Below are positions 5,638 through 32,064 of a stretch of DNA of 64,000 nt, in pieces. The DNA lies in NCBI GenBank assembly GCA_964570175.1, contig CAZMXG010000008.1, forward strand, positions 2,114 to 66,113, written 5' to 3'. The notes under the pieces were generated by a model. The model had not been told where the DNA came from, made no database searches, and saw only the letters and a list, made by a program, of their open reading frames with translations. The stretch is from an uncultured Heliomicrobium sp. Lineage in GTDB: Bacteria; Acidobacteriota; Blastocatellia; RBC074. How positions within the stretch are numbered: position 1 is the first letter of the stretch; each line of letters starts with the position of its first letter. The position numbers were made by a program, and so were the translations under genes.

Positions 5638-5770
5638 GTTTCAACGCAAAGACGCCAAGGTTCAAAGGCGCAAAGAACTTTTGGAAAGACGTTCGCCATG
5701 CCTCAAAATTTTACCAGATCATGCTTTGCGTCTTTGCGTCTTTGCTACTTCGCAGCTTTGCGTTTTGAAG
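5638..5770. repeat. Hairpin element with arms made of GCAAAGA/TCTTTGC-type short repeats
   Basis: Left arm: tttcaacgcaaagacgccaaggttcaaaggcgcaaagaac. Right arm: gctttgcgtctttgcgtctttgctacttcgcagctttgcgttttgaag. The ends (tttcaacgcaaag and ctttgcgttttgaa) are complementary. It lies in the spacer between two minus-strand genes. Confidence 0.5.
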
Positions 5771-26667: not shown

Positions 26668-27554
26668 TCGGGCAAACCGACAAGGCAAACGTTTCCGTCG
26701 TTGTCCCGGTGTACAACGGCGAAGCGACTATTTCACAAACGGTTGAATGCTTACTTCAACAAAGCTTGGCTCCGCGCGAAATTATCGTTATTGACGATGG
26801 TTCGACTGACCGAACTGCCGACGTGTTAAAGCCCTTTGCCAACCAAATCCTGTACACGTTCAAAGAGAATGGCGGACCAGCTTCGGCGCGAAATCTAGGC
26901 GTGAAGTTGGCGAGTGGCGACTTTGTTGCTTTCACCGACAGCGACTGTTTGCCGGAACGTGACTGGCTGCGAGAGCTTGTTGCCGCATTTGATTCTGATG
27001 AAATTGCCGGAGTCGGTGGCGCGGTAAAAGGCATTGACGATGGACACATTGGCCAGTACGTAGATGCGATGAGATTGATGGAACCGGCTGAAAATCAATT
27101 TGGGGAAATTGAATACTTGATTACAGCTAACGCCTGTTTTCGTCGAGATGCTTTGCTCGCCGTTGGTTTGTTTGACGAACGGTTTCGCAAACCGGGCGGC
27201 GAAGAACCTGCGTTGTGTCGCCAAATCCGGGAGCTTGGGTTTCGCTTTGATTTTGCCGAAGATGCCGTTGTCTTGCATCACCACCGTCAAACGATCAAAA
27301 GCTTTTTACGCACGCTCAGCAATTACGGTGAAGGGCGATTCTTGCTCGGCCAGCTCTGGCCCGAATATCAAATCCAGCGGCCACGACGCGCGTTTTTCAG
27401 GCAGATGATTGCGCTGCGCTCGCTGGTGCAACGATATTCGGGGTACAGCAGAAGCTACGACACAGAGCAGGCATTTCTGTTTTCTTCGCTGGATTATCTG
27501 CGGGAATTGGCGTTTTTGTGGGGATACCTGCGCGGTCAGCGATATGCAGCCTAA
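26664..27554 (+). CDS. Glycosyltransferase family 2
   Basis: Contains VSVVVPVYNGEATI...IIVIDDGSTDRT...ENGGPASARNLG...AFTDSDC. I place the start at TTG 26664 (a TTGA overlap with the upstream stop); this is uncertain. The track start (26499) overlaps the previous gene by 169 nt. Confidence 0.75.
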   Translation: MIGQTDKANVSVVVPVYNGEATISQTVECLLQQSLAPREIIVIDDGSTDRTADVLKPFANQILYTFKENGGPASARNLGVKLASGDFVAFTDSDCLPERDWLRELVAAFDSDEIAGVGGAVKGIDDGHIGQYVDAMRLMEPAENQFGEIEYLITANACFRRDALLAVGLFDERFRKPGGEEPALCRQIRELGFRFDFAEDAVVLHHHRQTIKSFLRTLSNYGEGRFLLGQLWPEYQIQRPRRAFFRQMIALRSLVQRYSGYSRSYDTEQAFLFSSLDYLRELAFLWGYLRGQRYAA

Positions 27555-28521
27555 AGTCAGTGTCATCATTCCGGCTTACAATGTAGCGCCGTTTATCGCC
27601 GCGACCCTTCGCAGTGCGCTGGGGCAGACTTATGGCAATTGCGAAGTGATCGTCGTTGATGATGGCTCTACCGACACAACGTTGGAGGAAATTTTCTTCT
27701 CCACGAAGGCACACGAAGATTCACGAAGAAAACCGGAAACATCTATTGCTGGCTTCGTGTCTTCTTCGTGTGACTTCGTGGAAAAATCAGTTCGAGTTTT
27801 TAGCAAATCCAATGGCGGCCCTGCTTCGGCCAGAAACCTGGCGATCAAGAATTCGCGCGGAAAGTACATTGCCTTTCTGGATGGCGATGATTTGTGGATG
27901 CCCGGCAAGCTGGCTGAACAAGTCGAGTTTTTGGAACGTAACCCGGGAGTCGGAATGGTTTTTGCCGAAGCCGCGACTTTTACTGAGCAAAACGACCAAA
28001 AAGAGTTTCGGGGAAAAATTGGTTACACCGGAGAAACTTCGTTTTGCTATTTGCTGCTGGGCGATCACATTCCGAATTCGACGGTGATGATTCGCCGCGA
28101 ATGCGTAGACAAAATTGGGTTGCTGAATGAAAGCCGCGAACTGATCGCCGTCGAAGATTACGAATACTGGCTGCGACTGGCGCGCGCTTTCCCGATCAAA
28201 GGCATCACCAAGACAATGGCGTATTACCGAGTTCACGCAAACAACTTGATGGGTGAAGGCGAAGACATTGAGCGCGGATTGCGCTTGCCGCTGCTGGCCC
28301 TGAAGGAAGCTGAACGACTTTTTCCTGACTGCTGGCAACAATGCGACGTAGAAAGGGAAGTGCTGCTTGCTCGGTTGCACATTCGCGCCGGCTTTGCGTG
28401 GAAGCAGCGTGGTGAATGGAGAAAATGCCTGAAAAAGTTTCGTCAGGCGTTACAGCTTCGTTTTAACCTCAGAGTCATTCGCTGGATCGTCGCGGCAACT
28501 TTGCTCAAACGTTGGTCATAA
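27544..28521 (+). CDS. Glycosyltransferase family 2 carrying an in-frame 27-codon palindromic insertion
   Basis: MQPKVSVIIPAYNVAPFI...VIVVDDGSTDTT...[insertion]...SNGGPASARNLAI...AFLDGDD. The ATG at 27544 overlaps the upstream gene by 11 nt. Confidence 0.85.
   Translation: MQPKVSVIIPAYNVAPFIAATLRSALGQTYGNCEVIVVDDGSTDTTLEEIFFSTKAHEDSRRKPETSIAGFVSSSCDFVEKSVRVFSKSNGGPASARNLAIKNSRGKYIAFLDGDDLWMPGKLAEQVEFLERNPGVGMVFAEAATFTEQNDQKEFRGKIGYTGETSFCYLLLGDHIPNSTVMIRRECVDKIGLLNESRELIAVEDYEYWLRLARAFPIKGITKTMAYYRVHANNLMGEGEDIERGLRLPLLALKEAERLFPDCWQQCDVEREVLLARLHIRAGFAWKQRGEWRKCLKKFRQALQLRFNLRVIRWIVAATLLKRWS
27701..27781. repeat. 81-bp palindromic CACGAAG/CTTCGTG element, in-frame inside a GT2 gene (copy 1)
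   Basis: ccacgaaggcacacgaagattcacgaag-[24 nt]-cttcgtgtcttcttcgtgtgacttcgtgg. The arms are complementary apart from about 3 mismatches or indels. The length of 81 is 27 codons. It encodes STKAHEDSRRKPETSIAGFVSSSCDFVE. Confidence 0.75.
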
Positions 28522-29517
28522 ATGAATCAGCCATTGGTTTACATCATCATTTTGAACTTCAACGGCAGCCGCTGGTTGCAGCCTTGTCTGCAATCGCTGC
28601 GCATGACGGAGTACACGAACTTCAAAACCGTGCTGGTGGATAACGCTTCCAGCGACGACAGCGTCGAACTGGTGCGCGGCCAATTTCCTGAAGTCGAAAT
28701 CATCGTCAATTCGGAAAACCTGGGGTTTTCCGAAGGCAACAACGTCGCGATCCGAAAGGCTCTGGCTGAAGACGCTGATTACGTTGTTTTGCTAAACCCG
28801 GACACGAAAGTCACGCCACGATGGCTTAGTGAATTGATTGCGATTGGCGAGAAGGAAAAGGACGTTGGCATCCTCGGTGCAGTGCAACTGACTTATGACA
28901 GCGAAGAGTTCAACACTTGGACGAAGACTGCTTTAAGCCATCATCTCGATGAGCTTTCTTTATCTTCCACGAAGTCACACGAAGAAAACACGAAGGCTGA
29001 AACCGGCGATTCGTCTTTGCTTCGTGATGCTTCGTGTGACTTCGTGGGAAACCGAGATTGGGTTCCAGTCGAATGGGTCGAAGGCGCTTGTTTTGCCATC
29101 AAGCGCAAAGTCATAGAACAAGTTGGATTGCTTGATCCGATCTACTTCGCGTTTTACGAAGAAATTGATTTCTGCCGCCGAGCCGCTTTCCGTGGCTACA
29201 AAACCGCGCTTGTTCCGCGCAGCCGCATTCATCATTTTCGTGGCGGCAGTTGGGAAGCCAACGCCACCATCAAACGCCAACGAGATTACCGCTGTGATCG
29301 CAGCCAATTCATCTACAGCCTGACAGACCCGCGTCGTTCGATGGTGGCAAACTTAGGCTGGTATTTGAGGACGCTGGCGACAAAAACAAGCGAAGCCGTT
29401 CGTGCTTTTAGCTTGATAAAAGCCTGGGACTTGATACGAATCCAGGTTGAGTTACTCGGCACGCTGCCAAAGCTTACTAGCAAATGGCAGCGTGACCGAA
29501 GTAATTCATCTCAATAA
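28522..29517 (+). CDS. Glycosyltransferase family 2 (rhamnosyltransferase-like) carrying the same in-frame palindromic insertion
   Basis: Contains VYIIILNFNGSRWL...VLVDNASSDDS...NLGFSEGNN...LNPD...FAFYEEIDFCRR. Confidence 0.85.
   Translation: MNQPLVYIIILNFNGSRWLQPCLQSLRMTEYTNFKTVLVDNASSDDSVELVRGQFPEVEIIVNSENLGFSEGNNVAIRKALAEDADYVVLLNPDTKVTPRWLSELIAIGEKEKDVGILGAVQLTYDSEEFNTWTKTALSHHLDELSLSSTKSHEENTKAETGDSSLLRDASCDFVGNRDWVPVEWVEGACFAIKRKVIEQVGLLDPIYFAFYEEIDFCRRAAFRGYKTALVPRSRIHHFRGGSWEANATIKRQRDYRCDRSQFIYSLTDPRRSMVANLGWYLRTLATKTSEAVRAFSLIKAWDLIRIQVELLGTLPKLTSKWQRDRSNSSQ
28967..29047. repeat. 81-bp palindromic CACGAAG/CTTCGTG element, in-frame inside a GT2 gene (copy 2)
   Basis: ccacgaagtcacacgaagaaaacacgaagg-[22 nt]-gcttcgtgatgcttcgtgtgacttcgtgg. 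The outer 18 nt on each side are perfectly complementary. The length (81) and codon phase (element starts at codon position 2) match copy 1. Confidence 0.75.
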
Positions 29518-29521
29518 CACA

Positions 29522-30112
29522 TCAAGCATTGCGATTATGCTGGTTGTTTCTGACCAGCCTTTTGACTGGGATTTCAATGATTGTATGCCCGCCTGCTTCC
29601 CGAAATTCCGACTCAAAATGTTGTTTTATCAACCCCAGGTCGAGTGATTTTGGGAAGCTTGCAATGGTTGGAAACCGCAACAAATCCAGTACCAATTTTG
29701 TGGCTGGATGATTACGCTCTCGTTGCATATATCGTAACGATTCGTTGAATTCGAGCAGGATTCTTTCGATTTTACCCCTCCTTTGTTCGTCTTCGTTCCA
29801 AATGTTGGATAGTTCTTGTGCTACCGCTGCCCGATTCGATGAAATCTGAAACAGGCTGATTGTCGGAGGCTGGAACCCGTCTTTGAGCAATGTCTGACTT
29901 AGTGCTTCCACTCGGTTCAATGATGTCTGGGAAATGCCGATTAACCCCAACGCTTCGTCTAACAACCTGGTTTGGTACTCCAGTTCATCTGCAAAGTAGT
30001 GGAATTCATTCGGCATCAGCCAATGCGCGAACTGTCGCTGATACAAATTGCCTTGGGCGATCTCACAAGCATGGCGTGCTTCTTGGAGTCTCAGTTCAAG
30101 AATACTTTGCAT
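29522..30112 (-). CDS. Hypothetical protein (196 aa), predicted helical, orphan
   Basis: ATG with a strong AGGAGA RBS. The stretch is A+T-richer than the flanking GT genes by eye. I recognise no family. Confidence 0.5.
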   Translation of the reverse strand: MQSILELRLQEARHACEIAQGNLYQRQFAHWLMPNEFHYFADELEYQTRLLDEALGLIGISQTSLNRVEALSQTLLKDGFQPPTISLFQISSNRAAVAQELSNIWNEDEQRRGKIERILLEFNESLRYMQRERNHPATKLVLDLLRFPTIASFPKSLDLGLIKQHFESEFREAGGHTIIEIPVKRLVRNNQHNRNA

Positions 30113-30755
30113 AGGTTCTCCTTTTTAAGTTACTGGCGTTTTAGATAACCACTTATTCGATGCTGCAATCTTCAGCAAACGAGAGGCCAAACATCATTCA
30201 AACTAGCTTGGCTCTGCGAACTCCAAGTAAAATATCGAGTTATCTTTTTTGTTATAGTTTCAAGAACGCAGTTCAGTAACACCACAGTCCTGTCACTTAA
30301 GAAAAACGGGGAACAAGGTCTTTAGATTGGGGAAATAAATCTTGACTGAATTCAATAATCAGTAATAGGACTTACGCAGAAGCCATCTTGAGGGATGGGT
30401 TCTTGAGTTGTTGAATGAGGTAATCACTCAACAGTCCATGTTTGAGTTGATAAACCGTGCGACCCGTTTCGGTCGCCAGTTCTTTGAGTCGGACCCAGAC
30501 CAGAAACGCGCAAGCTATAAGTAAATTCGATGCAGTGCCATGCTTGAGGTATGGCGTAGTGATTTCCCAAGTTTCTGTTTCCGTCGCTGATTATCGGCAG
30601 CCACAAAATGCTTTGCTGGAAAATGTTCGTACTCGAAGTATTCGCAATCGCATTTGCTAGCACGACTTGGCCGATTTCGCGTCAGATGATACCTTTCCCA
30701 AGCGGTGAAAACGCCGCGATCTTCCCATTTCAAAATACCGGAGAACTTGTTCGTT

Positions 30756-31974: not shown

Positions 31975-32045
31975 GACAGGATGAGCAGGATTTCTCAGGA
32001 TTAAGTAACAGAAAGAAATCCTGATTGAATCCTGCAAATCCTGTC
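31975..32045. repeat. Solo CAGGATT/AATCCTG hairpin element
   Basis: Left arm gacaggatgagcaggatttctcaggatt (31975-32002). Right arm aatcctgattgaatcctgcaaatcctgtc (32017-32045). About 23 of 28 positions pair. The left arm is 24/28 identical to the left arm at 42780-42807. Confidence 0.7.
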
Positions 32046-32064
32046 CATTGAAAGAAGGTCTGGA

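Follow-up and report, generated by a model that had tools for sequence, protein, structure and literature searches.

An in-frame hairpin repeat with CACGAAG-array arms in two adjacent GT2 glycosyltransferase genes: a dispersed family resembling Rickettsia palindromic elements

Palindromic repeats that are read as part of a protein have so far been treated as a peculiarity of Rickettsia. The work of Ogata et al. (2000, 2002), as summarised in PMC10969869 and PMC3733652, describes the palindromic elements of Rickettsia (RPEs) as dispersed repeats of ~100-150 bp that lie in-frame in unrelated genes and encode a conserved peptide in a consistent frame, at insertion sites compatible with the protein fold; no transposase is known for them. 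Here we report the same behaviour in abundant free-living bacteria of soil and water. The window analysed, a 64-kb stretch of DNA (64,000 nt of contig CAZMXG010000008.1, deposited as an uncultured Heliomicrobium sp.), contains two copies of an 81-bp hairpin element whose arms are built of the heptamer CACGAAG. Copy 1 and copy 2 lie in-frame in two adjacent genes, GT2 gene 1 and GT2 gene 2, both encoding GT2 glycosyltransferases. The element is probably a non-autonomous, RPE-like selfish palindromic repeat that its hosts tolerate as a disordered surface loop. We regard its family as new but of a kind already known, the build of its arms from heptamer arrays being unusual.

[quoted passage not shown] The features of RPE-like coding repeats as a kind are found here: a dispersed hairpin family, recurrent in-frame use, a conserved peptide, and an insert that, for copy 2 as in those repeats, lies outside the conserved protein core. 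In contrast to RPEs, the present element is shorter (an 81-bp core versus ~100-150 bp), its arms consist of three phased heptamers, and its hosts are free-living Acidobacteriota, whereas RPEs belong to a genus of obligate intracellular bacteria. It is further distinguished by in-place inversion and by the nested insertion of a sister hairpin, both seen here. The likeness described here is one of behaviour.

REPs carry a GTAG or CGTC tag at one end, and each REP is itself a short palindrome (PMC3733652). Like REPs, bacterial interspersed mosaic elements (BIMEs) and hairpin-forming REP doublets (REPINs), our family consists of short palindromes situated mostly between co-directional genes and occasionally in open reading frames (ORFs), with covariation in the stem (PMC3733652; PMC3116915), and an RNA or DNA structural role is possible for both. 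The CACGAAG consensus, however, bears neither tag, and its arm is a direct heptamer array that is not itself a palindrome, so that the element is not a doublet of REPs. It also differs from REPs in that its 81-bp length class is predominantly intragenic. No gene for a REP-associated tyrosine transposase (RAYT) was seen in the 8-kb loci sampled. Coding MITEs (ERIC/RU, Coxiella QMITEs) are likewise non-autonomous, with terminal inverted repeats and in-frame fusions (PMC2759123, PMC5896051, PMC10969869); the window copies have such terminal repeats in the form of 28-nt arms, and identical copies occur within one genome. Unlike those of MITEs, its inverted repeats are 7-mer arrays rather than a transposase-end consensus; no parent insertion sequence was found in the ~1 Mb sampled, and alignments of filled and empty alleles show no target-site duplication. 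Long hairpin inverted repeats lying in-frame in protein genes, with both arms translated, are also described in Nematomorpha mitochondria (PMC6649704), but those are organellar, do not form a dispersed family with empty sites, and have no known relation of sequence or lineage to ours. In the searchable literature, the CACGAAG heptamer appears in primer sequences only, and no description of the family in Acidobacteria was found in MITE, REP or RAYT contexts.

The anatomy of copy 2 (ccacgaagtcacacgaag...cttcgtgtgacttcgtgg; Table 1) had been outlined in a first-pass annotation of this DNA, and re-reading bore out its sequence, its length of 81 bp, the 100% complementarity of its outer 18-mers, its start 445 nt past the ATG at 28522 (1 mod 3, codon position 2; 157 nt past the ATG at 27544 for copy 1) and its peptide, STKSHEENTKAETGDSSLLRDASCDFVG. 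Heptamers follow each other within an arm at about one helical turn, and the two arms differ slightly in spacing (10 and 11 nt versus 10 and 10 nt). Since 18 of the 20 copies in the 81-bp class show this asymmetry, the element is oriented. The hairpin is far beyond chance. Its arm pattern, CACGAAGNCACACGAAG, has 6 matches in the window versus 0.06 expected; the heptamer alone has 25 versus 10.7 expected, 12 of them within copies 1 and 2. The predicted RNA fold of copy 2 reaches -44.3 kcal/mol (z = -8.0), and the DNA fold has z = -6.7. An Rfam scan of positions 27000-30000 returned sub-threshold miRNA-like hairpin matches only, the best being mir-263 (27.8 bits versus a gathering score of 51.3). 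An intrinsic terminator was considered and rejected: neither window element was called by a terminator scan, and a run of T is missing. The only terminator call near the 3' end of GT2 gene 2 lies at 29539-29558, past the stop codon.

A full-pattern scan of species-representative genomes found the CACGAAG unit at at least 119 other loci (numbered with L below; proteins with P), so that the window copies are far from being its sole instances. With taxonomic labels taken as deposited, most records are metagenome-assembled genomes (MAGs) of Blastocatellia, Pyrinomonadaceae and other Acidobacteriota, and a few are labelled Caldilineaceae, Anaerolineae or Syntrophobacteraceae; the hosts are Acidobacteriota living freely in soil and water, and some records bear the label Chloroflexota. 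Many records (L002-L004, L120 and ~35 other loci) bear the label Heliomicrobium or Heliobacteriaceae, which is a Bacillota name. Locus L120, which has a label of this type, shows the gene order of the window, and its GT2 gene 2 protein is ~88% identical to that of the window outside the insert; other close homologues of this L120 protein are labelled Blastocatellia. Given this synteny and identity, the Heliomicrobium/Heliobacteriaceae label of such records looks wrong.

Pattern lengths in the family cluster at 64-68 and 77-81 nt. The core measures 65-93 bp and the full unit, with outer arms, up to ~141 bp. The palindrome runs at least 5 nt past the core on each side with covarying pairs, position -2 being paired in 90% of copies (T:A or C:G), and the family consensus reads T(C/T)(A/T)(T/C)C-CACGAAG-N-CACACGAAG. 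Even the loop has a consensus that holds family-wide, across unrelated genes and genomes. One genome, MAG_31, contains an identical 141-bp unit (core plus 24-nt outer arms, bringing the arms up to ~52 nt) at three contig ends (L055 1-140, L087 1-141, L111 1-141), beyond which the flanks differ, the contig ends hiding one flank of each copy. These identical units point to recent copying, and short-read assemblies evidently break at the repeat. At L018, L041 and L088 the 10-nt unit has expanded in tandem.

The length of the element is related to its coding use. Patterns of 79 nt, which correspond to 81 bp once the flanking C and G are included, lie in long ORFs (open for at least 150 nt on both sides) in 15 of 20 cases. 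For lengths of 77, 78, 80 and 81 nt the proportion is 4 of 18, none with Pfam support (p = 0.003 and 5e-5), a contrast that suggests selection for in-frame length; gene calls here rest on ORF length and Pfam. All ten in-frame host ORFs tested (nine from the 81-bp class plus L073, with an 84-nt pattern) are real proteins of unrelated families, and their Pfam domains are split around the inserts. Thirteen of 15 intragenic copies have one orientation and phase, reading [S/P]TKxHEExTK...LRxxSCDFV. No Pfam family covers this peptide. Its profile has 15 matches in 1.84 billion representative proteins, which adds GT4 glycosyltransferases to the hosts and makes protein space unfit for a real census. 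The idea that the ATG of the GATGA flank serves as a start codon was discarded, its frequency being 22% versus a background of 26%.

Presence and absence of the element can be followed directly at the two GT2 sites, where the search for empty alleles proposed in the first-pass annotation was fruitful. Homologues of GT2 gene 2 form two length groups, of 301-310 aa and 329-347 aa, and the short forms, all outgroups included, read ELQ(R/S)ETAR(D/N)W at the insert site. L120 has copy 1 (80/81 identical) and an empty copy 2 site; in the syntenic L125 both sites are empty; L126 has copy 2 and half of copy 1. The two copies thus differ in their distribution, as expected of the independent insertions that had been proposed. 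Together with the family's many loci in unrelated hosts and the empty sites found for both copies, this supports the earlier view of a mobile DNA unit, not a protein domain. Only the four closest proteins carry copy 1 in full; a larger group retains the right arm alone (VPSSCDFVEK) with an ancestral-looking left flank, and the empty homologues include P0126 (87%), which is as near the window gene as the filled alleles are. Decay is also visible: L124 shows an apparent deletion footprint, the right half of the element in L123 is overwritten by a CAGGAT-heptamer hairpin, also in-frame, and the solo arms found inside genes at other loci are decay products. A metagenome scan for orthologue DNA added one filled locus (L132) and three empty ones. 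A bootstrapped tree built from the protein sequence around the insert gives the clade containing the window gene 100% support, and within it neither filled nor empty alleles are monophyletic in any replicate (0/100 each). This interleaving implies either repeated gain or the exchange of alleles by recombination.

The loops of the two window copies had been described as different, but this is an effect of the opposite orientation of copy 1. The reverse complement of copy 1 shares 65/81 positions with copy 2 (inner part, 30/45), versus 42/81 (7/45) for the forward direction, and the loops are homologous once flipped. Compared with its orthologue in L127, window copy 1 agrees at 72/81 positions as reverse complement and at 46/81 forward, while the outermost variable positions keep their orientation; copy 1 has therefore flipped in place, with breakpoints inside the arms. 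Each window copy is identical to copies in other genomes at 69-70/81 positions. Copies 1 and 2 are thus no nearer to each other than to copies elsewhere; they have independent histories, and the local hopping suggested by two insertions within 1.3 kb is unsupported. The other suggestion made on that occasion, that these particular genes are tolerant of insertion, is plausible: GT2 and GT4 enzymes recur among the hosts, and the insert occupies a low-confidence loop.

This loop was located with an AlphaFold model of GT2 gene 2 (mean pLDDT, the predicted local distance difference test, 85; pTM, the predicted template modelling score, 0.83). The pLDDT falls below 50 only at residues 149-176, exactly the insert, a low value not in itself being proof of disorder. 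The segment comes after a helical excursion and before the strand that bears the invariant VEWVEG motif, and it is flanked in the GT2 homologue alignment by the invariant columns L142 and E184. In both hosts the Pfam matches are split around the insert. The insert lies outside the conserved part of its host protein; the first-pass annotation had proposed to check whether the peptide maps outside the catalytic core.

Conservation of the element is at the DNA level rather than the protein level. In orthologues found by protein homology, we compared codon identity at amino-acid positions conserved between the members of each pair. Codons inside the element were identical at 14/14, 17/17 and 22/23 such positions, versus proportions of 0.57-0.77 in the rest of the gene (p = 0.0004-0.004 for these three pairs); for the window and L121 the count was 15/18 (p = 0.065). 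The loop of copy 2 has meanwhile drifted, with 17-18/24 positions identical to its orthologues (L126, L121). Since element codons stay identical while host codons drift, the constraint acts not on the peptide but on the heptamer DNA, unless the heptamers are homogenised by conversion from other copies.

These observations suggest the following scenario. The heptamer arrays are most likely sites recognised in trans by a protein (recombinase, transposase or DNA-binding factor) through which the family moves or is maintained. A unit would have entered the GT2 gene after its split from the relatives that keep the ancestral empty site, and would have survived because it added a net 27 codons, contained no stop in the host frame and encoded a hydrophilic peptide placed in a disordered loop, presumably between the nucleotide-binding and acceptor halves of the enzyme. 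Conservation of the frame suggests that the element is translated, and tolerated rather than needed. After insertion, the heptamers remain identical while the loop drifts; the inner part can flip through recombination or template switching between arms; halves are deleted, and other hairpin families can land in the same spot.

Several points weigh against this interpretation. No target-site duplication or direct repeat is visible in alignments of filled and empty alleles, the junctions are unclean (15 nt replaced by 96 nt), and net gains among alleles vary (78, 81, 90 and 102 nt). Exchange of alleles by recombination, instead of repeated insertion, may account for the interleaving of filled and empty alleles. 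No transposase was found between or beside elements: at six loci with paired elements, the intervening DNA encodes metabolic domains only, in ~1 Mb sampled, and in the same sample, where neighbouring genes are ordinary metabolic ones, no related autonomous insertion sequence with the same ends was found. The full pattern has no match in viral contigs. Most members were found by an exact arm pattern, so that conservation of their arms is by construction; the unbiased members are the orthologues found by protein homology (L121, L122, L127, L132). Five of the six combinations of orientation and phase are mostly free of stops (12-18 of 18 copies each), and stop codons consequently cannot explain the bias toward one of them, to which peptide tolerance or insertion polarity must contribute. 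Lastly, perfect conservation of heptamers at synonymous sites could denote a function at the level of the host rather than selfishness.

This last possibility leads to the main rival, a REP-like cis element, structural or regulatory, that serves the host at the level of RNA or DNA, for instance through mRNA stabilisation, translation control or arrays that bind a nucleoid or regulatory protein, its GT2 copy being kept by nucleic-acid selection, for instance as a means of tuning a polysaccharide operon. It is favoured by heptamers that stay invariant at synonymous sites while the loop drifts, by the great stability of the hairpins, by the existence of sister families with other heptamers and the same architecture, and by the position of intergenic copies, which sit inside operons between co-directional genes. 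In one MAG, moreover, the 65-nt class has a conserved GAGGAG flank directly upstream of start codons, and a start codon with a Shine-Dalgarno-like motif lies within 60 nt of 26% of copies versus 6.7% of control positions; such proximity is, however, expected of any 100-bp element in short intergenic spacers. Against it, close relatives retain the same operon without copy 2 or without both copies, copies are subject to decay, inversion and overwriting, the host genes are of unrelated function, and the missing run of T argues against a terminator. We hold a host-serving role to be unlikely. A related proposal, likewise unlikely, is that the heptamers are operator-like sites for dedicated trans-acting proteins; the hairpins, kept by nucleic-acid selection, would embody several 'heptamer codes' in parallel (the window has CACGAAG, CAGGATT and CGCAAAG) and form a domesticated REP-like system. 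Copies between genes would then be 5'-untranslated-region or Shine-Dalgarno cassettes, those inside genes would exert their effect through mRNA or DNA and be read into a harmless loop of the protein, and recombination between copies could promote gene fusion and domain shuffling (the chimeric GT2 of L167 and, if its fusion was made by insertion, the FecCD-ABC protein of L044, both described below).

Selection could instead act on the peptide itself, a His-, Glu-, Cys- and Asp-rich module of 27 residues (TKxHEExTK...LRxxSCDFV) recruited into many proteins, for instance as a metal-binding segment or flexible linker. Its conservation across hosts, and the use of a single orientation and phase by 13 of 15 intragenic copies although most of the other frames are open, would fit. 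Yet the codon identity of the element, higher than that of the host gene, shows the constraint to be on DNA; the same DNA occurs between genes, in other frames (L010) and flipped (copy 1); and the pLDDT below 50, the absence of a Pfam family, the mere 15 profile matches and the persistence of empty alleles in close relatives all make such a module very unlikely. Also very unlikely is a local origin, in which the palindrome would have arisen separately in each gene by 10-nt slippage followed by fold-back copying. The tandem expansions at L018, L041 and L088 and the solo arms, including the right-arm-only allele of GT2 gene 1 with its ancestral-looking flank, speak for such events, but copies in unrelated genes and genomes have homologous loops and a homologous 10/11 spacing asymmetry, and identical 141-bp units occur at different loci of a single MAG.

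On the reading we prefer, that of an RPE-like selfish repeat, the GT2 locus provides a natural series (empty, filled, flipped, halved and overwritten) for studying how selfish DNA adds loops to proteins. The family reaches at least a dozen unrelated host genes, among them the widely conserved tRNA pseudouridine synthase TruB, and its heptamer-array arms, together with the sister families, point to a putative recognition protein. In MAGs of Acidobacteriota, the practical effect is that assemblies break at these repeats and spurious ORFs arise from them; chimeric genes or contigs may be a further product.

Table 1. Features of the window at the two GT2 insertion sites, and host proteins tested in other genomes
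Feature	Coordinates	Strand	Remarks
Copy 1, same repeat family	27701..27781	+	In-frame in GT2 gene 1 (27544-28521); inner part flipped compared with the L127 orthologue
GT2 gene 2, host gene, GT2 glycosyltransferase, 331 aa	28522..29517	+	Pfam PF00535 and PF13632 flank the insert at residues 149-176
Filled segment, 96 nt (SLS...GN)	28957..29052	+	Replaces 15 nt (QRETA) of empty alleles; core plus degenerate outer arms, net +81 bp
Copy 2, quasi-palindromic hairpin repeat, 81 bp	28967..29047	+	Canonical orientation of the family, in-frame in GT2 gene 2
Copy 2 left arm	28967..28995	+	CACGAAG x3 at 28968-74, 28978-84 and 28989-95; spacing 10, 11 nt
Copy 2 loop, 24 nt	28996..29019	+	Variable, with a family consensus at each position
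Copy 2 right arm	29020..29047	+	CTTCGTG x3 at 29020-26, 29030-36 and 29040-46; spacing 10, 10 nt
Tested hosts (1)			TruB; two YfhO-type membrane proteins, inserts at different positions; FecCD-ABC single ORF; Fer2/FAD oxidoreductase
Tested hosts (2)			CCG/Fer4 protein; GFO/IDH/MocA fusion; FAD halogenase-like enzyme; XdhC; ABC-2/M1 peptidase protein

Some host proteins have unusual structures. In L044 (5056-7062), FecCD permease and ABC ATPase domains share one frame of 669 codons, counted from stop to stop, with the element exactly at their junction (residues 380-407); two neighbouring genes may have been joined by the insertion. Large proteins at L082 (2542-2569) and L108 (1993-2020) contain a full in-frame element plus a one-arm half element elsewhere in the same ORF. 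At L167 (50-796), an ORF of 248 aa (protein P0247) begins with ~52 residues from the start of GT2 gene 1 and continues, after one hybrid element, with the C-terminal half of GT2 gene 2. This is the product expected from recombination between copies 1 and 2, since in that lineage the two agree in orientation and phase; it is equally possible that the assembly is chimeric, the source being a single 1.7-kb Logan contig.

Downstream of GT2 gene 2, a 1.2-kb stretch of the window (29518-30704) extends to an aminotransferase gene and contains a minus-strand ORF of 196 aa without a Pfam match. The stretch is missing from L121 and L125, both of them syntenic, and in L120 a TPR protein takes its place.

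Further hairpins occur in the window. Between the aminotransferase gene and a zinc-ribbon gene, an intergenic hairpin (31975-32046) has three CAGGAT(T) units per arm with 10-nt phasing, and hairpins of the CAGGAT type also lie nested within the reading frames of L123's GT2 orthologue and of protein P0026. A CGCAAAG-type phased-heptamer hairpin (5643-5764; 34-nt arms, 79% complementarity) occupies the spacer of two minus-strand genes, where an over-extended ORF reads through it. An imperfect inverted repeat at 1541-1770, with 68-nt arms of 74% complementarity, encloses a tight GC-rich hairpin (1628-1684) and shows no sequence relationship with the heptamer hairpins. Finally, at L005 (1281-1500) and L046 (584-800), both from one Blastocatellia MAG, 65-nt hairpins stand in tandem, separated by a conserved 61-nt spacer with GAGGAG, a flank found elsewhere directly upstream of real gene starts, and a nine-codon mini-ORF, MSRGDARKE.

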